From Candidatus Aminicenantes bacterium (GTDB taxonomy: Bacteria > Acidobacteriota > Aminicenantia > Aminicenantales > CALLJL01), in contig JAOAFQ010000015.1 of the NCBI GenBank assembly GCA_026416195.1, positions 9,332-73,331 on the forward strand: a stretch of 64,000 bases of DNA, written 5' to 3'. The translations under genes and the position numbers were made by a program. Below the pieces are notes generated by a model, which had not been told where the DNA came from, made no database searches, and saw only the letters and a program-made list of their open reading frames with translations. Of the stretch, positions 26,741 to 39,725 are shown piece by piece (position 1 is the stretch's first letter; each line of letters opens with the position of its first letter).

Positions 26741-28390
26741 TTAACGGACACCTGGCTTAATTGAGACTTCTTCATAAGAAGAAATATAAAAAACCGGATT
26801 GGTCTGGGAAAACTCAGGTCGAAAGGCTGAACTACAAACTAGACCATCCATATCCCTAGCTACAGGCAAGCCTAAAAGATAAAGAAGGGTGGGGCCAATA
26901 TCAACTAATCTAACTTTTTCCAAAGATTGTCCCCTGATAACGTCTCGGCCATAAAAAAAGATAACCCCCTCAGGCGCAAACTCAAAATGACCCGAGACAA
27001 GAGGATTGCCTAAAGCCCACTCTACCAATCTTTTCCAAATAGGTAGAGGTTCCATCCCGTGAGTTGAAAAGATAATTAGGAGCTCATCTTCTCTTAAGTT
27101 GGCTAAATATTTGCCAATAAGCTGGTCGTAATAAATATAATATTTTTGAATAATTGGTCCGTACCGATTTATCTCGCTTTGGTCAATATTTCCGAAGAGG
27201 TGAGGAAAGCTATATTTATAAAAAAATGTCTTCACTTGATTGAGACCATCTAAGAATAAAGCAAAGACTTGGGGTGAAGATTGCCCCTTTTCTTGAAAAG
27301 CCTTTTCTTCAAGACTTATATCCTGCCCAAGCGCTTGCCTCGCTAGCTGTAAAAGACCATTATTAGCTGATGGGTCACCAAAAAAACTGGCCAAAATTTT
27401 TTCGGCCTTTGGGCTAAAAGAAATATCAGCTTGAGCCTTTTCTTCAGGCTCAAAAAGAGCAATTTTAAAATTCATTTCCGTTAATATTTGCCAGATATCT
27501 TTGCCAGGCTGGCAACTTACAGGTTGAGGGATTAATATTTTAAATCGGGTTAGCTGTTTAAAAAGCATAAATCGAGGTAAAGCTTCTAAAAAAGGTTTTT
27601 TCCCCCAAAAACTAAAGCTTTGAGAAGTCAGACAACGGTGACCATAAGGATTTTTGCCGGTTAAAAGTGATTTTTTGAGGACGAAGGGGTCGGTGGGAGA
27701 CAGGGTCTGAAGTCTGGCCCAACTCCCATTTTCCATGAGCCAGGAAAAGTTAGGTAGCTTTCCTTCATGGATTAAAGGAATTAGGAAATTGAAGGAGAGG
27801 CCTTCAAGATTAAGTAAGGTGGCTCTTCTTGGGCTTGGAAAGCTAATCAAGATTGTCTTAGGTCGAACGTACTTTGGCTGTGGAAAGGCTGAACGACTCC
27901 AGAACATTAACCCCAGCCCGATAAAGAAAAAGATGAAAGCTAAAATAAAATAAATAGATAAAGGCCGATGACGATGATAACGCCAGAAGAAAACCAGGCC
28001 ATTTAAAATTAAAACTAAGCTGATGATCCCCTGAAGTTTAAGGGAAGAAAGCATGGTTGGGGAGAAAAAGGACCGATAAAAACTTTGGTTCAAGCGGAGT
28101 AAAATGAAGAAGAATAAAAAACAAGTCGAGAAGCTCAAAGAAAGAAAGGAAGGCGAAATTAATTTGATTTTAAAGGCTCGGCCAAAAAGAAATTCAATCA
28201 AAAAACTTGACGCTAAAAAAAATAGAGCTGAGGCCAGGCCGTAAATAGAACTGATAAAAAGGGTGAGTCGAAGATAAAATTGCCAGTTGGGTAAAATATT
28301 AATATTAAGGTTAGCCACCAAGAGGGCAATAAGCAAAGAAAAGAAGATTCCACTGATCAATGAATTAGTTAGATTACGAAAAATTCTCAT
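26741..28390 (-). CDS. polytopic membrane protein with C-terminal alkaline-phosphatase-superfamily domain (LtaS/EptA- or phosphodiesterase/NPP-like)
   Basis: About 5 N-terminal TM helices, then a soluble domain ending ...LIIFSTHGMEP (SDHG-like metal/His motif). Confidence 0.45.
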   Translation of the reverse strand: MRIFRNLTNSLISGIFFSLLIALLVANLNINILPNWQFYLRLTLFISSIYGLASALFFLASSFLIEFLFGRAFKIKLISPSFLSLSFSTCFLFFFILLRLNQSFYRSFFSPTMLSSLKLQGIISLVLILNGLVFFWRYHRHRPLSIYFILAFIFFFIGLGLMFWSRSAFPQPKYVRPKTILISFPSPRRATLLNLEGLSFNFLIPLIHEGKLPNFSWLMENGSWARLQTLSPTDPFVLKKSLLTGKNPYGHRCLTSQSFSFWGKKPFLEALPRFMLFKQLTRFKILIPQPVSCQPGKDIWQILTEMNFKIALFEPEEKAQADISFSPKAEKILASFFGDPSANNGLLQLARQALGQDISLEEKAFQEKGQSSPQVFALFLDGLNQVKTFFYKYSFPHLFGNIDQSEINRYGPIIQKYYIYYDQLIGKYLANLREDELLIIFSTHGMEPLPIWKRLVEWALGNPLVSGHFEFAPEGVIFFYGRDVIRGQSLEKVRLVDIGPTLLYLLGLPVARDMDGLVCSSAFRPEFSQTNPVFYISSYEEVSIKPGVR

Positions 28391-28577
28391 CTGATTTGAC
28401 TCAGCTTCTTATTTTAAGCCAATTGCTCTTGAAAAGTAAGAAATTTCTTGAGACGAAATTTGGATGATTTTCTTTGGTAATTTAAGAAAACTTAGAAAAG
28501 GAGTTTTTTCGGTTTAAGGAACTTCAGGTATAAGAAACATTGACCAGTAGGGGCCGTTCAAAGTATGATTGAGGCAA

Positions 28578-29402
28578 ATGAAGGGAACGTTAATTGCTTT
28601 GCTTACAGATTTTGGGTTGAAAGATTATTTTGTAGCCGCCCTGAAGGCAGTTATTTTAACCATTAATCCAAAAGCTCAGATAGTAGATATTAGTCATGAA
28701 GTAGAATCTTTTAATCGAGTCGAAGCTGCTTATCTTCTAAAAAGCGTTGCTCCCTATTTTCCAAAGGGAACAATTTTTATAACAATCGTCGATCCTGGCG
28801 TTGGTTCTTCTCGGAAAATCCTTTTAATTAAAGGTAAAAAACATTTTTTTATTGGACCTGATAACGGGGTTTTAATTCCAGCGGCCGAAGAAGAAGGGAT
28901 AATCGAAATCCGCCAGCTTGAGGCTAAAGAGTATTTTCTTCCTTCTTCGAGTCGAACATTTGAGGGACGGGATAAAATGGCTCCTGTGGCTGGCTGGCTT
29001 TCTCGAGGACTTCAGCCTGAAAATTTTGGGCCAGTGGCTTCTACTTGGGAAAAATTTTCTTTGCCCCAACCCTTGTACTTAGCCCATGAGATCAGAGCTG
29101 AAGCGCTCCATCTTGATAAATTCGGGAATATAATTACTAATATCCCTTATAAAAATTTTTTAGAGTGGTTAAAAAGTCAAAAGGCAGAGGAGATATTTTT
29201 AGTTACCCGCAAAAAACAAAGACGACTTGAATTTACTTCGACCTTTGCAAGTGGCTCAGCCAAATTACCCCTACTTATAGCTGGAAGCAGTAATTATATG
29301 GAGATTGCCTGGAAGGAAGATTCAGCTGCCCATCGACTTGAAATAAAACCAGGCGATAAAATAAGGATAAAAATCGTAAAAGCAAGAAGAAACAAAAGGT
29401 AA
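28578..29402 (+). CDS. SAM hydroxide adenosyltransferase (DUF62; fluorinase/chlorinase-like SAM hydrolase family)
   Basis: N-terminal IALLTDFGLKDYFVAALKAV is the DUF62 hallmark. The ATG at 28578 is preferred over the TTG at 28569. Confidence 0.7.
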   Translation: MKGTLIALLTDFGLKDYFVAALKAVILTINPKAQIVDISHEVESFNRVEAAYLLKSVAPYFPKGTIFITIVDPGVGSSRKILLIKGKKHFFIGPDNGVLIPAAEEEGIIEIRQLEAKEYFLPSSSRTFEGRDKMAPVAGWLSRGLQPENFGPVASTWEKFSLPQPLYLAHEIRAEALHLDKFGNIITNIPYKNFLEWLKSQKAEEIFLVTRKKQRRLEFTSTFASGSAKLPLLIAGSSNYMEIAWKEDSAAHRLEIKPGDKIRIKIVKARRNKR

Positions 29403-29408
29403 AAGGAA

Positions 29409-31583
29409 GTGGAAGAACTCGAAGGAACGGTTGATCAAGTAGTCTATTACAATCCCGAAAATGGTTATTGCGTCTGTCGCTTTCTTCTTGAAGATGAAGA
29501 AGTAATTACAATCGTCGGTTATTTTCCACCGCTTTCAGCCGGTGAAGTTTTGCGGATTAATGGTACTTGGGAATTAAATTCTAAATATGGGCGTCAGTTT
29601 CGAGTAAACTCTTTTGTTCCGGTGCTTCCTTCTTCAGTTCGAGGAATACAAAGATTCCTTTCGTCAGGATTAGTAAAGGGTATCGGCCCTGTTCTGGCCA
29701 AGAGAATAGTTGATCATTTTGGCTCGCAAACAATGCAAGTTCTTACTACCTGCCCAGAGAAATTATTAGCTGTGGAAGGCATTGGGCCAAATAAGTTGCA
29801 AGAAATAATCCGTTCTTGGGAAGAAAATAAAAGAATTAGAGATTTAATTATTTTCCTCCAAGAATATGGAATTTCTACCTCTCTAGCTACCAAGATTTAT
29901 CGCCATTACGGGGATCAAACTTTTAAGGTCCTGCGAACAAATCCTTATCAGCTCTGCCTTGATGTTTGGGGGATAGGTTTTCGAACAGCAGATCAAATGG
30001 CTTTAAGATTAGGTTGTGATCCGTCTTCCCTCGAAAGAATTGCCGCCTTTATTCATTATTATCTTGAAAGGGAAAGCGAACAGGGTCATCTTTTTAGTTA
30101 TCGGCCTGAGGTGGTCGAAGCTGCCTCTAAAGAATTGGCTGTGTCTGCGGAAGGCGTAGAAGAGGCTCTTGAGCAGTTAATTAGCCAAAGGAGAGTTTTG
30201 ATTGAAGTAACTTCTTCTGGACAGGCAATTTATCTTCCTTATCTTTATCGGGCTGAAGAAACAGTAGCTAGAGGCATTATTCAGTTAGCTTCGACGCCCC
30301 TCTTAGTTCCAGGCCTTAATCTCGACGAAACTATAAAGAAGGTCGAAAGTCAGCTTGGGGTAAGTTTTTCCCACGAGCAGAGAAAAGCTATTGAGGAAAG
30401 CTGGCGTCAAAAAATTTTGATCATCACTGGTGGCCCGGGAACTGGGAAAACCACTTTAATTCGAGCTATTGTTGAAATTTATGAGCAGTGGGGAAAGAGG
30501 GTGCTTTTGGCTGCTCCGACTGGCCGAGCCGCCAAACGATTGGCCGAAGCGACAGGTAGAGAAGCTAAGACCATCCATCGGTTACTTGAATATAATCCCA
30601 AGGAGGAGGGCTTTCGACGAAATGAGAAGTATCCGCTCGCTGGTGAGGTTCTGATCATTGATGAGTTTTCTATGGTGGATATTTTATTGATGGAAGCGTT
30701 GATAAAAGCTATTCCTTTGGGCATGCGCCTTATTTTGGTTGGTGATAGCGACCAATTACCTTCGGTTGGGCCTGGAAATTTACTGAGAGATTTAATTGAA
30801 AGCCAACGAATTAAAGTGGTTCGGCTGACTGAGATTTTTCGTCAAGTTCGGGGAAGTCTTATTGTTCTCAATGCCCATCGAGTCCAGCAAGGTCTTGGAC
30901 TGATTTATTCCAGGAGCAGTGAGGCTGATTTTCTCTTTATTGCCCAGGAAGAAGAAGAAAAGGCTTTCGAGTTAGTCATGGACATGGCCTGTGACAAGGT
31001 ACCAAGTAAGCTCAGGTTGCCGCCGTTAAATTCCCAGATTCAAGTAATTACTCCTATGTATCGAGGCTTGTGTGGGGTGGAGAATCTTAACCGACAGTTA
31101 CAGGCCCGCTTAAATCCCCAAAATAAGGGAATCAAATTAGGTCAAAATGAACTTCGGGTCGGGGATAAGGTCATGCAGATCAGAAATAATTACGATAAAG
31201 AAGTATTCAATGGTGATTTAGGTACCATCGTTTCAATTGATCCGGAAAAATGGCAGATCATCGTGGATTATGATGGCCGCTCTGTTCTCTATGAAAGAGA
31301 TGAACTTGGAGAAATCACCTTAGCTTACGCTATCTCAGTCCATAAATCCCAAGGAAATGAATATCAAGGAGTTATTATGCCCCTTCTTATCCAACATTAC
31401 ATTATGTTACAGAGAAATCTTTTTTATACAGCGTTAACCAGAGCCAAAAAGTTTTGTGTCATTATCGGTTCTTTTCGAGCTCTCCACATTGCTATAAAAA
31501 ACGATAGTCCAATTAGAAGGAATGGTTTGCTTAAGGATAAACTTCAAGCTAGATTAGCCAGTCCTATCCAGGAGGGAATATGA
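29409..31583 (+). CDS. recD2: ATP-dependent RecD-like DNA helicase (RecD2, SF1B)
   Basis: Walker A GGPGTGKTT and Walker B LIIDEFSMV. N-terminal HhH region and C-terminal SH3-like region, 724 aa. GTG start. Confidence 0.8.
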   Translation: MEELEGTVDQVVYYNPENGYCVCRFLLEDEEVITIVGYFPPLSAGEVLRINGTWELNSKYGRQFRVNSFVPVLPSSVRGIQRFLSSGLVKGIGPVLAKRIVDHFGSQTMQVLTTCPEKLLAVEGIGPNKLQEIIRSWEENKRIRDLIIFLQEYGISTSLATKIYRHYGDQTFKVLRTNPYQLCLDVWGIGFRTADQMALRLGCDPSSLERIAAFIHYYLERESEQGHLFSYRPEVVEAASKELAVSAEGVEEALEQLISQRRVLIEVTSSGQAIYLPYLYRAEETVARGIIQLASTPLLVPGLNLDETIKKVESQLGVSFSHEQRKAIEESWRQKILIITGGPGTGKTTLIRAIVEIYEQWGKRVLLAAPTGRAAKRLAEATGREAKTIHRLLEYNPKEEGFRRNEKYPLAGEVLIIDEFSMVDILLMEALIKAIPLGMRLILVGDSDQLPSVGPGNLLRDLIESQRIKVVRLTEIFRQVRGSLIVLNAHRVQQGLGLIYSRSSEADFLFIAQEEEEKAFELVMDMACDKVPSKLRLPPLNSQIQVITPMYRGLCGVENLNRQLQARLNPQNKGIKLGQNELRVGDKVMQIRNNYDKEVFNGDLGTIVSIDPEKWQIIVDYDGRSVLYERDELGEITLAYAISVHKSQGNEYQGVIMPLLIQHYIMLQRNLFYTALTRAKKFCVIIGSFRALHIAIKNDSPIRRNGLLKDKLQARLASPIQEGI

Positions 31584-32059
31584 AGAAAGTTTTCTTAGGG
31601 ATAACTTTATTAATTGTTTTTATCTTAGGATTTTCTGCTTCTGAGATTTTGGTCATAAAGGTGCAAACGACAGCCTTGCGAACAGAACCCAGGTTTTTTG
31701 CTTCAGTTAAGAGCCTATTAACCTTTGGTGATCAGATGGAAAAAGTGGGTTTTCAGGAAGGATGGTATCAGGTTAAAACTCTAAGAGGGGTTTCCGGATG
31801 GGTTCATAGTAGTGCTGTTCAACCTCGGCCATCGAAATTGGCCGCGTTGACTCAAGGACCAAGAGCTCAGCCTACAGCCAGTGAAGTAGCTTTAGCTAGC
31901 AAAGGCTTTAATCGCCAGGTCGAATCAGCTTACCGCAAAAGGCATCCTGAAATAGATTATTCTTGGGTCGATCGGATGCTTAGCTTTAAGGCCGATCAAG
32001 CTGCCATTGAAAAATTTCTTCGAGAGGGTCGACTCGGAGAGTGGAAGGAGGTCAAGTGA
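31580..32059 (+). CDS. secreted SH3b-domain protein
   Basis: Signal peptide plus SH3_3-like LRTEPRFFASVKSLLTFGDQMEKVGFQEGWYQVKTLRGVSGWV. Confidence 0.45.
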   Translation: MKKVFLGITLLIVFILGFSASEILVIKVQTTALRTEPRFFASVKSLLTFGDQMEKVGFQEGWYQVKTLRGVSGWVHSSAVQPRPSKLAALTQGPRAQPTASEVALASKGFNRQVESAYRKRHPEIDYSWVDRMLSFKADQAAIEKFLREGRLGEWKEVK

Positions 32060-32973
32060 CTAATCAAAGAAAAATAGCTGTTATCTTTTTCTTGTCTTGC
32101 CTTTTGATGGCTAGGTGTGCCAGTCTGAAAGAGGAAGGTCAGGTTATCCTTTCCCAAGTTGATCAAATCTCCGAAAAAGACAAAAAGTTGATTACTATGA
32201 CAGGTGAAACCCTGCGAACTTCCTTCCAAGATCTAACCGACGAAGAGGAATATTATCTTGGCCGCTCGGTTTCGGCCTTAATATTGTCTCGTTATAAAGT
32301 CTGGGATAATCAAAATGTCACCAATTATCTTAACCTTCTTACTCAAGCTCTTTGCCTTTACTCTGAGCGGCCTGAAATCTTTGCTGGCTACCATGTTCTT
32401 CCTCTTGATTCAGAAGAAATCAATGCTTTGGCTGCACCGGGTGGATTTATTTTTGTTACCCGGGGGTTACTTCGCCTTTGCCTCAATGAAGATACTCTAG
32501 CCGGAATAATTGCTCATGAAATAGGCCACATCAGTGCTCGCCATGGTCTGCAAGCTATTAAGAAATCGAGGCTATTGGAGGCTTTTAAGCTATTAGCCAC
32601 GGAAACAGCTGAACGTTTAGCTCCTGATAAAATGGCTCAATTAACTAACCTTTTTGAAGGAGCTCTAGATGATATTCTTATTCAACTAGTAGAAAGGGGT
32701 TATGATCGGCGAGCTGAAGATGAAGCTGATGAGTTGGCCTTAAAAACTTTGAAAAAAGCAGGTTATTCTCCCCTTGGCTTTGTGGCTTTTATCGAAGAAT
32801 TGGCCCGACAAAAAACCAAAACCAGCGGTCTTAAAGGTTGGTTCAGCACCCATCCCGATCCCCAAGAAAGACTAAAAAAAATTAAAAAGGAGATTTCAAC
32901 CTGGGGAAAGGAGATAAAAATTTCTCCAAACCGCTTGGTTCGGTTTCAGAAAATAACTTCGACTTGGAAATAG
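32041..32973 (+). CDS. M48-family zinc metalloprotease (BepA/YcaL-like)
   Basis: IAHEIGHISARHG HExxH motif, N-terminal lipoprotein-like signal (LSCLLMARCAS), 310 aa. Confidence 0.75.
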   Translation: MEGGQVTNQRKIAVIFFLSCLLMARCASLKEEGQVILSQVDQISEKDKKLITMTGETLRTSFQDLTDEEEYYLGRSVSALILSRYKVWDNQNVTNYLNLLTQALCLYSERPEIFAGYHVLPLDSEEINALAAPGGFIFVTRGLLRLCLNEDTLAGIIAHEIGHISARHGLQAIKKSRLLEAFKLLATETAERLAPDKMAQLTNLFEGALDDILIQLVERGYDRRAEDEADELALKTLKKAGYSPLGFVAFIEELARQKTKTSGLKGWFSTHPDPQERLKKIKKEISTWGKEIKISPNRLVRFQKITSTWK

Positions 32974-32988
32974 ATTGATGGGCTAAAA

Positions 32989-35070
32989 GTGTTGAGGAAA
33001 AAATGGATAAGGGGTTTGGTTTGCGGCGGAGGGGCCTTTCTGCTCGCCTTTTTCTCTTCCCTATTATCTTTTTTTCAGATTCTTGAATGGAAAAGCTGGG
33101 ATTTAAGAACTAAATATCTCTGTCGTCGAGAGGAAGCTTCATCTCAAATTGTTCTTATTTTGATTGATCAACCCAGTCTTGATTTTTATGCTAGTCAGGG
33201 AGTTTCATGGCCTTGGCCGCGACAGATGTATGCGGCAGTCTTAGATTTTCTTCGAATAAGCCAAGCCAAAGCCGTTATCTTGGATCTTATCTTTAGTGAG
33301 CCTTCTGTTTATGGGGTTGAAGATGATTTTCTCCTTGCTGAAGCTATGCGAAGAAATGGTAAAACTTTTTTGGCCGCGGCTTTCTCAAGGAATCCTCCAG
33401 TCATAGAAAAAGCGGATTGGTCCGAGCTTATGAAATTTTCCCTCAAAGAAATCAATGATAAAAAGGCGGCTATTATTGAAGCCAATTCGGTTGTTCTCCC
33501 AATACCTAAGCTTCTTGAAGCTGCCTGTGGTTTAGGCAATGTCCTCTTTCCACCCGATGATGACGCTATTTTCCGGCGATTACCCCTTTATTGTCGCTTT
33601 CAAGGAAAGTTATTCCCATCTCTTCCTTTATCCGTATCTCTTTATCTTCAGAGTGAGAATTATCATTCGCCTCGCCTCGATGACCAGGGTCGAATGGTTC
33701 TTTACTTTTTTGGACCTTCAGGCACATATAAAATTTATTCCATTGCCAGGGTTATTAATTCTTGGCTTCAGATAGAAAATAAGGAAATTCCCCAAATTCA
33801 ACCTAGTGAATTTTTTGATAAGATTGTTTTTATTGCTTCGAATGCTCCTGGTTTGCTTGATTTAAGACCAAGCCCAGTAAGTGCAGTTACTCCTGGAGTT
33901 GAGATTCAGGCCACGGCTTTAGATAATCTTCTTCAAAGAAAAAGTGTGGGCTTCTTGCCCCGCTTTGTTTCCATAGTTTTAATTTTATTTTTTGGTCTAA
34001 GTGTAGGTGTAGCTGTCTCCTATTCAACCAAAATAGGAATGACTCTTTTGTTTCTTCTTTTAGGACTTTCTGGTCCATGGCTTGCGGCGGCAGTAGCTTT
34101 TAAGCAAAGTTTTTGGCTGGAAATAATCCCCTCAGAAGTGGCTGTCATTACCGCCTTTAGTTTGGCCGCGCTTTTTAACTATAGTTTTGAAGGCCGAGAG
34201 AGAAGATTTATTAAAAATGTCTTTCGCCATTACCTCAGTCCTGAAATAATAGAAAAAATCTTAGCTAATCCTTCTCTTTTAAGGCTTGGAGGAGAAGAAC
34301 GGGAAATAACTTCTTTTTTTTCTGATGTGGCTGGTTTTTCTTCGATTGCCGAGAAGCTAACTCCCCAGAAGCTTGTGACTTGGCTCAATGAGTATCTGTC
34401 GGCGATGACAGAAATTATTTTAGAAGAAGGTGGGACCTTGGATAAATATGAGGGGGATGCCATCATTGCCTTTTGGAATGCTCCCCTTGACCAACCTGAT
34501 CATGCCTTAAAGGCCTGTCGGGCTGCCTGGCGTTGCCAGCAAGAACTTACCCGCCTTAATTCAGAATTAGAAAAAATCGGTGGCCGACCGGTCAGGATGC
34601 GCATAGGACTTAACTCCGGGTTGGCCGTGGTCGGCAATATGGGCTCAAGGAGACGCTTCGATTACACAGCCATGGGTGACACAGTTAATCTTGCTTCAAG
34701 GCTTGAGGGAGCGGCCAAATTTTATGGAGTTTCCATTCTGCTGAGTGAGAATACGCTGCGACAAGCCCAAGGACATCTCATTGTTAGACCAGTGGACATC
34801 GTTCAAGTCGTAGGTAAAAGTCAGCCAGTCACCATTTATGAATTACTTGGTTTCCAAGAAGATTTTCCGCCAGAAAAATTACTTGAACTCCAAATTTTTA
34901 TCCAGGCATGGCAAGCCTATTCAAACCGCAATTTTAAAGAAGCGCATCGCCTTTTTTCTTCTCTCCCTGAAGACAATTTGATCCGGCTTTATCTTAAAAG
35001 ATGTCAAGAATTCATTAATTCGCCGCCTCCGGCTAACTGGGATGGAGTTTTTATCTTAAAAGAAAAATAA
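32989..35070 (+). CDS. adenylate/guanylate cyclase with N-terminal CHASE2 sensor domain
   Basis: Periplasmic CHASE2-like region bounded by TM segments, then a class III cyclase domain with FFSDVAGFSS and downstream metal- and substrate-binding segments. 693 aa. Confidence 0.8.
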   Translation: MLRKKWIRGLVCGGGAFLLAFFSSLLSFFQILEWKSWDLRTKYLCRREEASSQIVLILIDQPSLDFYASQGVSWPWPRQMYAAVLDFLRISQAKAVILDLIFSEPSVYGVEDDFLLAEAMRRNGKTFLAAAFSRNPPVIEKADWSELMKFSLKEINDKKAAIIEANSVVLPIPKLLEAACGLGNVLFPPDDDAIFRRLPLYCRFQGKLFPSLPLSVSLYLQSENYHSPRLDDQGRMVLYFFGPSGTYKIYSIARVINSWLQIENKEIPQIQPSEFFDKIVFIASNAPGLLDLRPSPVSAVTPGVEIQATALDNLLQRKSVGFLPRFVSIVLILFFGLSVGVAVSYSTKIGMTLLFLLLGLSGPWLAAAVAFKQSFWLEIIPSEVAVITAFSLAALFNYSFEGRERRFIKNVFRHYLSPEIIEKILANPSLLRLGGEEREITSFFSDVAGFSSIAEKLTPQKLVTWLNEYLSAMTEIILEEGGTLDKYEGDAIIAFWNAPLDQPDHALKACRAAWRCQQELTRLNSELEKIGGRPVRMRIGLNSGLAVVGNMGSRRRFDYTAMGDTVNLASRLEGAAKFYGVSILLSENTLRQAQGHLIVRPVDIVQVVGKSQPVTIYELLGFQEDFPPEKLLELQIFIQAWQAYSNRNFKEAHRLFSSLPEDNLIRLYLKRCQEFINSPPPANWDGVFILKEK

Positions 35071-35081
35071 AAGGAAGAAAG

Positions 35082-35891
35082 ATGAAAGTTACTTTTTGGG
35101 GCGTTAGAGGCTCCTTTGCTGTTCACGGAAGGCCATACCTCCAGTTTGGCGGATCAACCAGTTGCGCTTCTCTTGAGATTAATCAGAATCATTTGATCAT
35201 TATTGATGCTGGAACTGGCCTAAGAGATTTAGGCCGTTTTTTACTTTCCCAAAAGATTCGACCAAAAATAAGCCTATTTATTACCCATTTTCACCTTGAT
35301 CATATTATAGGTTTGCCCTCTTTTCAGGCTCTTTACGATCCGGAAATAATTCTTCATCTTTATTCGCCTTTAAAAAGCCACGAAACGTTGAGGCTTTTTG
35401 ATAGCCTAATGGGGGGACGTTTTTTTCCGGTTATTTTTTCCAAAACCCCATGCCGGAAAGAAATTCATTCCATCGAGGAAAGAATGGAAATTGAGGGAAT
35501 TGTGATTAAGGCTCACCACTTGCCTCATCCCGGAGGCAACTTAGCTTTGCGCTTTGAAAAAGATGGAAAAAGCCTTATTTTTGCGACCGATGTTGAACCT
35601 CTTAATGAAAAATGGGATGAAAAGATGGTAGCTTATGCGTGGAAGGCCAATTATCTTATCGGAGAGGCTATGTTTACTCCCGAAGAATACACCCAAGAAA
35701 AAAAAGGCTGGGGCCATTCAAGCTGGCGAGTTACGCTTCAATTAGCCCAAGCCGCCAGTTGCGAAAATTTAATTTTTTCCCATTGGAATCCTGATTATGA
35801 TGATCGAAAAATTAAGGCTATTATCGCCATGGCCAAGAAGGAATTTCCCAGGGTATTTGGAGCTAGGCCAGGTTGGAAAATAGAGTTATAA
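35082..35891 (+). CDS. MBL-fold metallo-hydrolase (possible cyclic-nucleotide phosphodiesterase)
   Basis: THFHLDHIIGLPSF matches the HxHLDH core of the class-II cAMP phosphodiesterase signature. 269 aa, 11 nt after the cyclase gene. Confidence 0.65.
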   Translation: MKVTFWGVRGSFAVHGRPYLQFGGSTSCASLEINQNHLIIIDAGTGLRDLGRFLLSQKIRPKISLFITHFHLDHIIGLPSFQALYDPEIILHLYSPLKSHETLRLFDSLMGGRFFPVIFSKTPCRKEIHSIEERMEIEGIVIKAHHLPHPGGNLALRFEKDGKSLIFATDVEPLNEKWDEKMVAYAWKANYLIGEAMFTPEEYTQEKKGWGHSSWRVTLQLAQAASCENLIFSHWNPDYDDRKIKAIIAMAKKEFPRVFGARPGWKIEL

Positions 35892-35913
35892 AAAATTAAT
35901 TAGAGGTTTAACG

Positions 35914-37575
35914 ATGAGCTTCTCCTTAGATCCAAATCTTTGGTCAATATTATTGTTTTTCCTCTTTGGCTTGTTAATCTTTCTTACTATCTATTTCAGC
36001 CTCAAAATTTTTCTTAAGCTGTTTCTCCTTTTGAAATTGACATCTGTTTTTAATCTTTTCAAGAAAATTACGTTTCCAGGAGTGGCCATTATTGTTTTTT
36101 ACTGGATGAAGACGCTCAGTTCAAAATTTATTACTCCTTTACCCGAAAAATGGCTTTTGACCTTGGAGGCTGGTTTAGTCTTTTTTATTGTTGTTTTCTT
36201 TTTTCGACTCCTAGATGGAATTATTTCTGTCATCTATCAACAGAAAAAGAAGCCTTTTCCCTTGCCGCGAGTTCTTCATGGTTTCATCTTAGCCGTCATT
36301 TACCTCGTTGTCTTTTTTGTCGTCTTAAGATCAATTCTTCGAGTTAATCTTACTCCTTTCCTGGCTACCTCAGCTTTATTAACCGCTATTTTAGGCTTAG
36401 CCTTTCAAGGCGTCTTAAGTAATGTTATTGCTGGCCTTTCCTTGCATTTTTCTCGATCTTTTAATCGAGGGGATTGGGTCAAAATTGGTTCCTATGAGGG
36501 AATTGTTCAAGAAATGAACTGGCGAGAAACGATCCTCTTGGATCGTCAATCCAATTTGGTTATCTTACCCAATAACGTTGTTGCCTCAGAGAAAATAATC
36601 AATTTTTCTCGACCAGATAAGGCTTCGGCTTTAATTTTAGAAATAAAAATCAACTATGGTATTAAACCTTCTTTGGTTTTAAAGAAACTCCTTGAGGCGG
36701 CTGATGAAGTCAGCGAAGTTTTAAAAAATCCAGCTCCTCAAGCTTTTGTGGCTAGCTATGATCATCTAGGCCTGACCTACTGGCTAAAATTTTGGATAGA
36801 AGATTTCAGCCGAAAGAATTTAATCCTGGGAGAAGTTGGCCGCCAAGTTTGGTATAAGTTCCAACGACATGGAATCAGACTCTCTTTACCCTTAAATGAA
36901 ACCTTGAAGGAAGTTTTAACTACTTTTGAACCGCAAAAAGCCCTCTCTGAAGCCAAAGCTGAACAGGAAGTTAATTTTGCTTATCTTCTTAACTCTAATT
37001 TCCTTCGCTATGAAGAAGGCGAGAAAGCTGGCGAGCTCATTCTGCCTATTGAAGAAATTATGGCTCTTGCCTCCAGAGTCAAACGAGAGCATTATTCTAA
37101 AGGTGAAATTGTTTTTCGTCAGGGAGAGAAGGGAGAGAGTTGTTATCTTGTGGCCAAAGGAAAATTGAGAGGAGAAATCCTGTGTGAGGAAAAGGGACGA
37201 CAGTATTTATCTGAATTTGAAGTCAATGAAGGGGAGATTGTGGGGGAAATGTCTCTGTTCACTGGTTTACCTCGAACAGCTACCATTTTTGTAGTTGAGG
37301 AGACTGAACTTATCCGCATCACGTCCTCTGATTTTGCTCAATTATTAGAAAAACACCCTCATCTGAGTGAGGTTATAGCGGAAATAGTCAGCGAGCGAGC
37401 TCGAAAAAATCAGGATTTTCTGCAAAAAGTTCAATACCTTTCCAGCCAAGACATTGAAGCTTCTTGTAACCCTCGATCCATCATTGAAAGATTTCGACAC
37501 CTTCTTGTTCTTCTTAGGGAAGGGGAGGAGGAGCGACAAAAAAAGAAGATTGTCCGACCTGAAAAAGTTAGCTAA
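35914..37575 (+). CDS. MscS-family mechanosensitive channel fused to a C-terminal cyclic-nucleotide-binding domain (bCNG-type)
   Basis: N-terminal TM helices plus an MscS beta-domain (SNVIAGLSLHFSRSFNRGDWVKI...). C-terminal cNMP-binding motifs GEIVGEMSLFTG...PRTATIFV. 553 aa. Confidence 0.8.
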   Translation: MSFSLDPNLWSILLFFLFGLLIFLTIYFSLKIFLKLFLLLKLTSVFNLFKKITFPGVAIIVFYWMKTLSSKFITPLPEKWLLTLEAGLVFFIVVFFFRLLDGIISVIYQQKKKPFPLPRVLHGFILAVIYLVVFFVVLRSILRVNLTPFLATSALLTAILGLAFQGVLSNVIAGLSLHFSRSFNRGDWVKIGSYEGIVQEMNWRETILLDRQSNLVILPNNVVASEKIINFSRPDKASALILEIKINYGIKPSLVLKKLLEAADEVSEVLKNPAPQAFVASYDHLGLTYWLKFWIEDFSRKNLILGEVGRQVWYKFQRHGIRLSLPLNETLKEVLTTFEPQKALSEAKAEQEVNFAYLLNSNFLRYEEGEKAGELILPIEEIMALASRVKREHYSKGEIVFRQGEKGESCYLVAKGKLRGEILCEEKGRQYLSEFEVNEGEIVGEMSLFTGLPRTATIFVVEETELIRITSSDFAQLLEKHPHLSEVIAEIVSERARKNQDFLQKVQYLSSQDIEASCNPRSIIERFRHLLVLLREGEEERQKKKIVRPEKVS

Positions 37576-37637
37576 CTGGCTGGCCCAATTGAAAAGGAGT
37601 TTAGGTTTGATTTATATTGTAATTGTTCATAAAGAGT

Positions 37638-37712
37638 ACGCCTGTAGCTCAGTAAGGATAGAGCGAGGGATTCCTAATCCCTAGGTCGTGGGTTCGAATC
37701 CCACCAGGCGTA
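37638..37712 (+). tRNA. tRNA-Arg (anticodon CCT)
   Basis: Hand-folded cloverleaf: acceptor ACGCCTG/CAGGCGT, D-stem GCTC/GAGC, anticodon stem AGGGA/TCCCT with loop TTCCTAA, T-arm GTGGG-TTCGAAT-CCCAC, discriminator A. 75 nt, no encoded CCA. Confidence 0.9.
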
Positions 37713-37737
37713 CTTTAAATTTAATGAGGAGATTAGA

Positions 37738-38409
37738 ATGAAAAGGCGGGAGCGTAGACACTTGAAAGAGGATGAATTTGTTTCCACGATAACCAAGATC
37801 GTTCGCTTCTTTCGGCAGTATCAACGAGAAATAAAAATAGTGGCTGTCTCGTTAATAGCGGTAATTCTTTTATTGGTCCTTATCCGGGTTATCCAGGTTC
37901 GAGGTGTTAATCAAGCTAATCAGCAACTGGCGACTATATTAAAACTTAGTGAGAACCTTAGAGAAAAAATAGCTTCAGGTGAGGAAAATCCAAGTGAACT
38001 TAAAGAGTTGGAAAAAATGGCTGGGACGGGTCGCTATGGACGTTTAGCTTATATTCATTTAGCTAATTATTGGGTTGCTAAGAATGATTTGCTTCGAGCG
38101 CAAGCCTTTCTAGAGAAATTTCCAGCTCAACCCCGCGATTTGTTTTATTACCAAGCAAAAGATTTGCTCGGAGAAATTCTAATTTGGCGACAAGAGTATG
38201 ATCAAGCTATTAAGCTCTATGAATCTCTGGAAAAAGAAAAAAAAATTCCTTATATAAGAGACTCTGTTTTAATTCATTTGGCTGAGGCTTTCGAAAAGAA
38301 GGGAGACAAGAAAAAAGCTCTCGAAATTTATCGCCAATTGCAAAGTGAATTTCCCTATTCTGCCTATATCTGGAATATAGCCGACCGAATTCGTCGACTA
38401 GGAGGTTAA
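37738..38409 (+). CDS. membrane-anchored TPR-like repeat protein (YfgM-like)
   Basis: N-terminal basic region plus one TM (VAVSLIAVILLLVLI), then helical repeat segments. GAGGAG ribosome-binding site. Confidence 0.4.
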   Translation: MKRRERRHLKEDEFVSTITKIVRFFRQYQREIKIVAVSLIAVILLLVLIRVIQVRGVNQANQQLATILKLSENLREKIASGEENPSELKELEKMAGTGRYGRLAYIHLANYWVAKNDLLRAQAFLEKFPAQPRDLFYYQAKDLLGEILIWRQEYDQAIKLYESLEKEKKIPYIRDSVLIHLAEAFEKKGDKKKALEIYRQLQSEFPYSAYIWNIADRIRRLGG

Positions 38410-38423
38410 TCGAAAGCCAAGCC

Positions 38424-38451
38424 TTGCCAATTGTTAAAAATAGATTATAAT
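38424..38451 (+). promoter_or_regulatory. putative sigma70 promoter for the ferredoxin gene
   Basis: TTGCCA-16 nt-TATAAT, followed by a GGAGG ribosome-binding site at 38471 and the ATG at 38483. Confidence 0.4.
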
Positions 38452-38470
38452 AATCGCATAATTTTTCTGA

Positions 38471-38731
<261 letters not shown>

Positions 38732-38765
38732 TTTCCTTAATTAATTTTTTCTTGATATCCGAGGG

Positions 38766-39725
38766 ATGGAGGAAGGGGGGGAGAATTCCCTTCTGAAAAT
38801 GCTTATAGGGAAGAGGAAAAGCGTATGGCTTAATGTTGGTCTCTTCATTTTGACTATCTTTTCGACCTTCTTGGTCGGTCTTTCCTGGGGAACAAGTTTT
38901 GAATTGGCTGAAGATTTGGCTGTTTTACCGGCGAGTGAAATTGATTTTAATTTATGGCTAAATTCTAAGGTATTTTGGCTAAGTGGGCTTTACGTTTTTG
39001 TTCTTATGACTATTTTAGTGGGCCATGAGCTTGGCCATTATTTAACTTGTCGCCGCTATCAGCTTGAAGCTACCTTGCCTTATTTCATTCCAGCTCCTAC
39101 CCTTGTGGGGACTTTGGGGGCCTTTATTCGGATTCGATCTCCCATCACTCGAAAAAGTCAACTTTTTGATATCGGTTTGGCAGGCCCTCTTACTGGATTT
39201 TTCCTTTCTGTTCCTGCTTTGGTTTATGGAGTGGCTAATTCGAAATTGGTGCCGTCTTTACCTCAAGAGGGAACCATCTATTTTGGCGAGCCTCTTTTAC
39301 TTAAAGGGGTAGAGAAGCTTCTTTTCGGAACTATTTCAAATGATTATGACTTAGTTCTTCATCCAGTCGGTATAGCCGGCTGGGTAGGTATTTTAATAAC
39401 GGCTTTCAATCTTTTTCCAGTGGGGCAATTGGATGGTGGTCATATCGCCTATGCCCTTTTAGGAGCTAGATCTCGAAAATTAGGCAGATTTGTCTTAGGT
39501 CTTTTCATTATAATGGGTCTCTTTCTTTGGGTTGGTTGGCTTGTCTGGGCCGCCTTAATTTTTGTTCTTGGTTTAAAACATCCCCAGGTAACAGATGAGT
39601 TAGAAAAATTGAGTCCTGGTCGGCGAATCCTAGGTTGGGTAGCAGTGGCTATTTTCATCCTTTCCTTTATTCCTGATCCAATCAAGGGATACAGTTTTCT
39701 TGATATAATCAGAGCCAGAAGATAG
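38766..39725 (+). CDS. M50-family site-2 protease-like membrane metalloprotease
   Basis: HELGHY HExxH motif in a TM helix, second metal-ligand region NLFPVGQLDGGH, multi-TM, 319 aa. Confidence 0.75.
   Translation: MEEGGENSLLKMLIGKRKSVWLNVGLFILTIFSTFLVGLSWGTSFELAEDLAVLPASEIDFNLWLNSKVFWLSGLYVFVLMTILVGHELGHYLTCRRYQLEATLPYFIPAPTLVGTLGAFIRIRSPITRKSQLFDIGLAGPLTGFFLSVPALVYGVANSKLVPSLPQEGTIYFGEPLLLKGVEKLLFGTISNDYDLVLHPVGIAGWVGILITAFNLFPVGQLDGGHIAYALLGARSRKLGRFVLGLFIIMGLFLWVGWLVWAALIFVLGLKHPQVTDELEKLSPGRRILGWVAVAIFILSFIPDPIKGYSFLDIIRARR

Follow-up and report, generated by a model that had tools for sequence, protein, structure and literature searches.

A candidate cAMP signalling operon combining a CHASE2 adenylate cyclase, a metallo-beta-lactamase-fold hydrolase and a bCNG-type channel in Aminicenantes

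Can a few adjacent bacterial genes encode a whole cyclic AMP (cAMP) circuit, from the sensing of a signal to the synthesis of the messenger, its removal and an ion-flux output? This question is raised by three consecutive genes at positions 32989-37575 of a 64,000-nt stretch of DNA from Candidatus Aminicenantes bacterium (assembly GCA_026416195.1, contig JAOAFQ010000015.1, positions 9,332-73,331, forward strand), referred to below as the window. The genes encode a receptor cyclase with a CHASE2 sensor domain, a hydrolase of the metallo-beta-lactamase (MBL) fold, and an MscS-like channel with a C-terminal domain for binding cyclic nucleoside monophosphates (cNMPs), as in the bCNG class, bacterial channels gated by cyclic nucleotides. 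An earlier note on this DNA had proposed that the three genes form an operon for signal input, messenger synthesis, messenger removal and output. That proposal is supported in silico by synteny, by cyclase residues indicative of ATP as substrate, by a conserved cassette in the cNMP-binding domain (CNBD) of the channel, and by the relatives of the MBL protein. We therefore consider it probable that the locus is a chromosomally fixed cAMP signalling operon, consisting of a cyclase, an MBL off-switch and a cAMP-responsive channel. We would like to point out that our confidence is higher for the predicted activity of the cyclase and for nucleotide binding by the CNBD, and lower for the predicted substrate of the MBL protein, than for this model as a whole.

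Gene order and its conservation

The open reading frame (ORF) listing of the window recovers exactly the three plus-strand ORFs that the earlier note had described, with intergenic gaps of 11 and 22 nt. The conserved unit is larger than this trio. It begins two genes upstream, with an SH3_3 gene at 31580 followed by a Peptidase_M48 gene at 32041, and its 3' boundary is a tRNA-Arg(CCT) gene (37638-37713), which is a boundary marker with no functional role in the circuit. The earlier note was thus correct about the trio but drew the limits of the cassette too narrowly. The features of the unit are as follows:

31580..32059, plus strand: SH3_3-domain protein, probably exported, 159 aa (Pfam SH3_3, 1.2e-9)
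32041..32973, plus strand: Peptidase_M48 zinc metalloprotease, probably exported, 310 aa (Pfam, 1.6e-27; HEIGH motif)
32989..35070, plus strand: predicted CHASE2 receptor adenylate cyclase, 693 aa, GTG start (Pfam CHASE2 and Guanylate_cyc)
35082..35891, plus strand: MBL-fold di-metal hydrolase, putative phosphodiesterase, 269 aa (Pfam Lactamase_B_2)
35914..37575, plus strand: bCNG-type MscS-like channel with a C-terminal cNMP-binding domain, 553 aa (Pfam)
37638..37713, plus strand: tRNA-Arg(CCT) gene (ARAGORN)

The M48 and cyclase genes are separated by 15 nt, and Shine-Dalgarno-like sequences (AGGAAG and GAGG) lie 7-8 nt 5' of the ATG codons of the MBL and channel genes. Hydropathy analysis gives the SH3 protein and the M48 protease, whose translation contains AHEIGH, a single N-terminal hydrophobic segment each (residues 8-26 and 11-29, respectively), and both are therefore probably exported.

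Conservation of the locus was assessed by scanning one genome per GTDB species and taking the best 80 of 380 relatives, nearly all of them Aminicenantes, at 36-51% identity. Loci were counted by ORF calling and phmmer searches with the window proteins, and 56 species-level loci had both flanks. The trio, whose joint conservation in related genomes the earlier note had named as a check, is present in 49 of these 56 loci (46 strict cases, two loci, L068 and L079, affected by ORF-extension artefacts, and L045, in which the cyclase is frameshifted), at MBL identities as low as 36-40%. The remaining seven consist of six loci with an alternative arrangement, described below, and one (L029) from which the channel is absent; a cyclase and a CNBD protein both adjoin the MBL gene in 55 of the 56. 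For example, homologous loci at 59%, 56% and 43% identity encode the SH3_3, Peptidase_M48, CHASE2 cyclase, MBL and MscS-CNBD proteins in a row, the junctions varying between 8 nt of overlap and a gap of 24 nt. Every CHASE2 cyclase gene counted is preceded by the SH3 and M48 genes (50/50 loci, of which 48 are strict, L026 has an ORF artefact and L073 has M48 and cyclase as one ORF), and both are missing whenever that cyclase is missing. Likewise, the same tRNA lies directly 3' of the channel gene in 8/8 related loci checked, including one (L005) in which different protein genes follow.

The alternative arrangement (arrangement B, found in L018-L020, L025, L028, L053, L069 and L072, six of them within the 56-locus set; for instance, L018 6225-10819) fills the same chromosomal slot as the arrangement seen in the window (arrangement A), between SAM_HAT-RecD2 and TPR-Fer4-M50 genes. 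Its genes encode a divergent FHA-GAF-cyclase, a 169-aa protein that consists of a CNBD only, a 374-aa transporter of the AI-2E family and the MBL protein, whose gene is inverted relative to the flanks, and none of the arrangement-B loci contains the SH3 or M48 genes. The sensor domains change and so does the membrane protein, yet the logic of a cyclase, a cNMP receptor, a membrane transport protein and an MBL protein is kept.

These patterns also bear on the possibility that the trio are neighbours by inherited synteny only, with the cyclase serving other receptors and the channel sensing global cAMP or tension. Such an explanation would fit the origin of all arrangement-A loci found from Aminicenantes, the synteny of the unrelated RecD2, SAM_HAT and type I phosphodiesterase genes in many loci, and the reported tension gating of the channel Ss-bCNGa, the last known from a title cited in a 2026 review (PMC13591265). 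However, the core remains contiguous while its flanks vary: L005 lacks SAM_HAT and has new genes downstream, and RecD2 accompanies the block in only 30 of the 51 loci with enough upstream sequence. The junctions within the core are 2-24 nt or overlapping, the module that replaces it in arrangement B again brings together the same four functions, and no second cyclase, CNBD or MBL gene occurs within the 64-kb window. We therefore regard inherited synteny alone as highly unlikely, and favor the interpretation of the locus as a signalling operon.

The flanks of the unit contain several other features. Upstream, the genes for SAM_HAT (formerly DUF62) and the helicase RecD2 (28569-31583, plus strand) run into the SH3 gene, with a 4-nt overlap between RecD2 and SH3. 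The earlier note had included a co-directional run starting at 28578; this run is real, but SAM_HAT and RecD2, which are syntenic and less constant than the core, are probably not parts of the circuit. Divergently oriented upstream of the run is a gene (26741-28390, minus strand), syntenic in most related loci, for a 549-aa protein in which approximately six N-terminal transmembrane (TM) segments are combined with a domain of the type I phosphodiesterase/nucleotide pyrophosphatase kind (PF01663, 7e-12). Downstream, the tRNA-Arg(CCT) gene occupies a 162-nt gap 3' of the channel gene, approximately 60 nt past the operon, with a promoter-like TTGAAA-18-TATATT sequence just 5' of it (37589-37618) and an acceptor stem without an encoded CCA. 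Because this tRNA is kept in L005 even though the following protein genes differ, its site may be a recombination or integration boundary.

A few individual loci deviate from the general pattern. L029 (10819-14500) keeps the SH3-M48-cyclase-MBL genes, but its channel gene is replaced by unrelated ones, and the cyclase of L045 (7891-9888) is split into three ORFs by frameshifts. In L035, RecD2 lies immediately 5' of the MBL gene at the end of a contig. These three cases are read as decay or variation specific to single lineages. L054 contains an N-gap.

The cyclase and the channel

The cyclase contains a CHASE2 domain (PF05226, 8.7e-50, residues 18-337) and a Guanylate_cyc domain (PF00211, 4.6e-20, residues 438-615; 72 bits against a cut-off of 21.9), and its translation includes the FFSDVAGFSS motif cited by the earlier note. 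Hydropathy indicates a first TM segment at approximately residues 10-32, a CHASE2 region of approximately 300 residues, three further TM segments within residues 326-395 and then the catalytic domain. This layout places the CHASE2 domain outside the cell, between TM segments, and catalysis in the cytoplasm. The best natural, non-engineered solved match of the catalytic domain is the guanylate cyclase Cya2 (2W01, 3.3e-34), and the adenylate cyclase CyaB (3R5G) matches at 1e-30. In the structure-sequence alignment, K486 is found at the position of a Glu in Cya2, while T560 coincides with the Thr of the adenylate cyclases CyaB and CyaC (1WC1), where Cya2 has a Gly. At these two positions, adenine is specified by Lys together with Thr or Asp, and guanylate cyclases have Glu/Gly or Glu/Cys. 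The metal-binding residues D446 and D490 and the transition-state residues N567 and R571 are also present and align to their CyaB/CyaC equivalents. K486 and T560 are each kept in 59 of 60 orthologues, and all key cyclase residues in 59-60 of the 60. By this residue signature, which combines PF00211 homology, the metal, Asn and Arg residues and the adenine-type Lys/Thr, the protein is predicted to be a class IIIb adenylate cyclase, and the conserved Lys/Thr pair suggests that the messenger is cAMP.

Two side observations concern the cyclase genes of related loci. In a long-read metagenome-assembled genome (L073, 6940-10155), the M48 peptidase and the CHASE2 cyclase form one continuous ORF, which may stem from a sequencing error or from a true fusion; in the latter case, the fusion would tie the protease directly to the sensor. 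Two other loci (L052 13936-18329 and L065 13021-17415) contain a second cNMP cluster approximately 1.5 kb 3' of the channel, made up of a small CNBD protein, a cyclase that lacks CHASE2 and a large protein of ~770 aa that also contains a CNBD.

The channel matches MS_channel_2nd (PF00924, 8e-17), MS_channel_3rd (PF21082, 7e-9) and, at its C-terminus, cNMP_binding (PF00027, 2.4e-20, residues 392-481). The MscS-like channel with a CNBD described by the earlier note is thereby confirmed at the level of domains, and the GEMSLF...RTATIF motif it had cited is found in the translation. Residues 107-320 align to MscK (7UW5, 1e-19) and MscS (7DLU, 3.5e-18) across TM3 and the beta and alpha-beta domains, so that the protein is laid out as N-terminal TM helices, the MscS pore helix TM3, the beta and alpha-beta domains, a linker and the CNBD. 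The CNBD matches those of Epac, CRP, PKA, PKG and SthK. Its phosphate-binding cassette (G444-E445...R454-T455-A456) is intact and kept in 58-59 of 59 channel orthologues, and the TM3 motif L-A-x-Q-G-x-L-S-N is conserved to the same extent. With an MscS-type pore helix followed by beta/alpha-beta domains, and a cNMP-binding domain with an intact cassette, the predicted architecture is that of bCNG channels. According to the 2026 review (PMC13591265), channels of this class are known mostly from cyanobacteria, are without a structure, and have an unknown physiological role.

A cyclase next to a CNBD-fused membrane protein also resembles the layout of Pycsar, and the locus could in principle be an anti-phage cassette in which a cyclic (pyrimidine) nucleotide is made on infection and the CNBD membrane protein is an abortive-infection effector that disrupts the membrane. 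Consistent with this, the PADLOC model PDLC00734 (PycC) matches the cyclase (3.9e-30) and Pycsar effector models match the CNBD of the channel (1e-13). However, these matches represent generic class III cyclase and CNBD homology, and PDLC00734 itself has a CNBD. The conserved Lys/Thr are adenylate cyclase specificity residues, the cyclase bears an extracytoplasmic CHASE2 sensor, the would-be effector is a full MscS-type channel, and a co-encoded cNMP hydrolase would counteract a defence signal. Moreover, the locus has a fixed core-genome position in approximately 50 species, with housekeeping neighbours, and not the setting of a patchy defence island. The defence reading was rejected on the basis of the specificity residues, the sensor domain and the core-genome synteny (49/56 loci), and we consider it extremely improbable.

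The MBL protein and its wider family

The MBL protein matches Lactamase_B_2 (PF12706, 4.6e-15) and Lactamase_B (2.6e-10); it has no hydrophobic segment by hydropathy and is placed in the cytoplasm. Its metal ligands (H69, H71, D73, H74, H149, D170 and H234) are invariant in an alignment of family members (38/38), as are H212, within G-W-G-H-S/T, and the motif E/D-A-M-F-T-P-E-E-Y. The spacing between H149 and D170 is only 21 residues. On this evidence, the protein has a complete di-metal active site of the phosphodiesterase type.

The earlier note had pointed to the core of the class II 3',5'-cNMP phosphodiesterase (PDE) signature in this protein. Both THFHLDHIIGLPSF and the HxHLDH core of that signature (H69-F-H-L-D-H74) are present, but the protein is not a member of the canonical class II family. 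The model of that family, PF02112, matches only the 15-residue metal motif (residues 64-78; E 0.069; 12.7 bits, with the cut-off at 23.7), and this assignment was rejected. T68-HFHLDH74 conforms better to [T/S]HxHxDH, the motif carried by the atypical class II cAMP PDEs, with which the protein shares the PF12706 fold. When the 150 nearest family representatives were searched for [TS]HxHxDH, the commonest classes were all motif-containing variants. Most members of the wider family have xHxHWDH where the window protein has THFHLDH.

The AlphaFold model of the MBL protein has a pLDDT of 95, and its nearest solved folds, at 15-23% identity, are RNase Z/BN, BA1088/YhfI, PhnP, yeast PDE1 and Apyc1. 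The structural neighbours and their scores are:

BA1088, YhfI-type (1ZKP): 27.7
ELAC1: 25.6
PhnP family: about 25
Yeast class II PDE1: 22.7
Apyc1: 20.5

YhfI itself (6KNS) gives a Foldseek target TM of 0.82 against the model, and nucleotide-bound Brucella MBL proteins are found among the structural neighbours too. There is also a weak but full-length match to the NCBIfam model NF041851, 'cyclic nucleotide-degrading phosphodiesterase' (5e-10; residues 1-255 against model positions 1-238 of 253). We assign the protein to a large branch, as yet uncharacterised, of the phosphodiesterase clade that comprises RNase Z, YhfI and PhnP. It appears to work like the atypical class II PDEs and may be their distant relative; the models of the curated families give it only a loose placement.

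Two other family assignments were tried and rejected. RNase Z and RNase BN models score far below their cut-offs (TIGR02651, 67.5 bits against 293; TIGR02649, 27 against 564), and the region corresponding to the RNase Z arm is 41-47 residues shorter. PhnP likewise falls short (TIGR03307, 27 bits against 272), and no phn genes occur among the neighbours of the MBL gene in the window or in the related loci.

The wider MBL family is large (2,483 clusters at 50% identity with E<=1e-30 in an exhaustive profile search) and is often found in signalling proteins. Of the 150 top-ranking representatives, 30 exceed 330 aa in length and are fused to other domains. The fused domains among these 150 are:

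STAS: 6
PilZ: 6
REC: 5
Histidine kinase: 3
GAF: 2
DUF6901: 1
Class III cyclase: 1

An MBL-REC-adenylate cyclase fusion is represented by at least nine clusters at 90% identity, from three data sources and on contigs of up to 104 kb. The cyclase of this fusion carries the Lys...Asp adenylate pair, and over its full length the MBL domain of the fusion shares 36% identity with the window protein (E 3e-44), which is much closer than any characterised enzyme. In one locus (L089 6001-8004), the fusion is the terminal gene of a Che-like operon (MCP, CheW, CheR, CheW, CheA, CheB), while in another (L088 6001-8393) a Che-like operon has in its place two neighbouring genes, one for an MBL protein and one for a REC-cyclase. 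Both of these operons are followed by C39-peptidase ABC exporters, and L089 also has a cNMP_binding gene. The fusion constitutes Rosetta-stone evidence for a role of the MBL family in cyclic-nucleotide metabolism, and the family is tied to cAMP by three contexts: the operon, the swapped module of arrangement B, and the MBL-REC-cyclase fusions. No description of this MBL clade as a signalling domain was found in the literature searched.

The question of what the MBL protein hydrolyses is where the operon model is most exposed. The cyclase and channel could form a cAMP pair while the MBL protein acts on another phosphodiester, such as RNA or tRNA 3' trailers, 2',3'-cyclic nucleotides or another nucleotide messenger, its presence in the operon then having some other cause. 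The invariance of motifs resembling the 'HST' and 'HEAT' motifs of RNase Z (GWGH212S/T and D/E-A-M-F-T-P-E-E-Y), the JGI annotation of relatives as PhnP or RNase BN, and the tRNA-Arg gene without an encoded CCA 60 nt past the operon are all compatible with this, and other messengers are suggested by the PilZ fusions found elsewhere in the family. On the other hand, the RNase Z, PhnP and RNase BN models are all far under their cut-offs, and there are no phn genes nearby. From motif II to the HST-like motif, the stretch that in RNase Z holds the tRNA-binding flexible arm, the window protein is also shorter than RNase Z by approximately 41-47 residues, and no counterpart of that arm (a tRNA-binding exosite between metal motifs III and IV) was found in it. 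In three architectures the MBL family adjoins or is fused to adenylate cyclases and CNBD proteins. Furthermore, YhfI, which is equally close structurally, hydrolyses cAMP and cGMP (PMC9117128). A substrate other than cAMP is thus unlikely, and hydrolysis of cAMP is the preferred reading. The earlier note had named closest homologues of the RNase Z, PhnP or other non-PDE kind, together with a lack of cNMP PDE activity, as counting against its proposal. As far as the relatives are concerned, its reading is supported: the RNase Z and PhnP models are below cut-off, and a cyclase-fused MBL domain is 36% identical. The nearest solved folds include RNase Z/BN and PhnP as well as YhfI-type proteins.

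The proposed pathway and known systems

Under the operon model, an extracytoplasmic cue would act on the CHASE2 domain of the membrane adenylate cyclase. The exported SH3 protein and M48 protease would probably share in sensing by feeding this sensor, with M48 possibly generating or removing the cue. The cyclase would then raise cytoplasmic cAMP, which would bind to the CNBDs of the MscS-like bCNG channel, a predicted heptamer, and would thereby alter its gating and the flux of ions or solutes. The soluble MBL protein, co-translated with its partners, would hydrolyse cAMP to 5'-AMP, keeping the signal local and transient and resetting the channel.

Several observations weigh against this model, or limit how far it extends. 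Arrangement-A loci all belong to one lineage and their synteny is partly shared ancestry, and arrangement B, which lies in the same slot as A, is not fully independent. A promoter and terminator scan of positions 28000-39000 was not above chance (20 promoters against a shuffled expectation of 19.3, and 18 terminators against 12.6), and co-transcription is therefore read from gene spacing alone. The MBL protein scores 39.1 bits on NF041851, an equivalog model of the CpdA/Rv1339 type with a cut-off of 400, and falls outside the family so defined. The PilZ and STAS fusions indicate a general signalling output domain, so that other subfamilies may differ in substrate or regulation, and an MBL-PilZ relative and a 417-aa relative (L090, L091) have no cyclase or GGDEF/EAL genes nearby. 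With regard to the channel, the 2026 review (PMC13591265) states that published bCNG channels gave E. coli no protection against hypo-osmotic shock, and it lists the part played by cNMPs in their gating as unknown.

All parts of the circuit belong to described superfamilies, and known principles are not overturned. Nevertheless, bCNG channels have been known since 2010 and their role is still listed as unknown in the 2026 review (PMC13591265), and the operon offers a pathway that is testable and can be reconstituted. The strict SH3-M48-CHASE2 linkage is a lead on what CHASE2 domains sense. More tentatively, it is possible that the MBL clade is a large group of signal-transduction phosphodiesterases and represents a third bacterial route of cAMP removal, beside the CpdA-type and Rv1339/YhfI-type enzymes, which in Aminicenantes is wired, together with an SH3/M48-assisted CHASE2 sensor, into a pathway leading from an envelope cue through cAMP to an MscS-type channel. 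If so, this would be the first physiological pathway for bCNG channels. If the MBL family does consist of cAMP PDEs, the 'MBL fold metallo-hydrolase' entries of many genomes would represent an unrecognised messenger-removal enzyme.

The window channel shares its pore, beta/alpha-beta domains and C-terminal CNBD with the bCNG channels of Caldwell et al. 2010 and Malcolm et al. 2012, as these are presented in PMC13591265. Those published channels are mostly cyanobacterial, whereas this one is from Aminicenantes and lies in an operon with a sensor cyclase and a putative PDE. No report of a cyclase-MBL-bCNG operon, or of an MBL-bCNG pairing, was found in the literature searched. The statement in the earlier note that MBL-fold hydrolases are uncharacterised as dedicated off-switches for bCNG channels accordingly holds for this pairing only, since MBL-fold cAMP PDEs in general are already known (PMC9293780).

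Among these are Rv1339 of M. tuberculosis, CpdA of C. glutamicum and YhfI of B. subtilis, the atypical class II PDEs, which are defined as PF12706 proteins with a [T/S]HxHxDH motif and are related to RNase Z (Thomson et al., PMC9293780). YhfI was shown experimentally to prefer cAMP and cGMP strongly, while Apyc1 is relaxed (Hobbs et al., PMC9117128). The window protein and the atypical enzymes have in common a PF12706 fold of approximately 250-270 aa, the motif, the di-metal ligands and an arm region shorter than that of RNase Z. Identity is only 16-18%, however, and the clade of the window protein, which is large, stands apart and shows frequent fusions to REC, histidine kinase, STAS, PilZ or cyclase domains. 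The atypical enzymes are global cAMP PDEs, and PMC9293780 does not describe them as operon partners of a cyclase or channel. The resemblance to PF02112, the canonical class II PDEs such as PDE1 of yeast, CpdP of Vibrio and PdsA of Dictyostelium, is restricted to 15 residues. In contrast to the Dictyostelium class IIb MBL-type PDEs GbpA and GbpB (PMC11988041), the window protein has no fused CNBD, and the CNBD is found on the neighbouring channel.

The Pycsar systems and their Apyc1 counterpart (PMC9117128) differ from this locus in that the latter has ATP-type cyclase residues, a core-genome position, an extracytoplasmic sensor and a host hydrolase inside the operon. The closest parallels for the cyclase are S. 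meliloti CyaD1, CyaD2 and CyaK (PMC13001267) and Synechocystis Cya2 (2W01), which likewise consist of CHASE2, TM segments and a class III cyclase domain. Cya2 is a guanylate cyclase (Glu/Gly), whereas the window cyclase has Lys/Thr. The rhizobial CHASE2 cyclases sense a proteinaceous signal by way of an envelope protein, and their cAMP acts on Clr (PMC13001267). In the window, by comparison, a channel takes the place of a CRP-type transcription factor as the predicted output, and the likely envelope partners are the SH3 protein and the M48 protease rather than NsrA.

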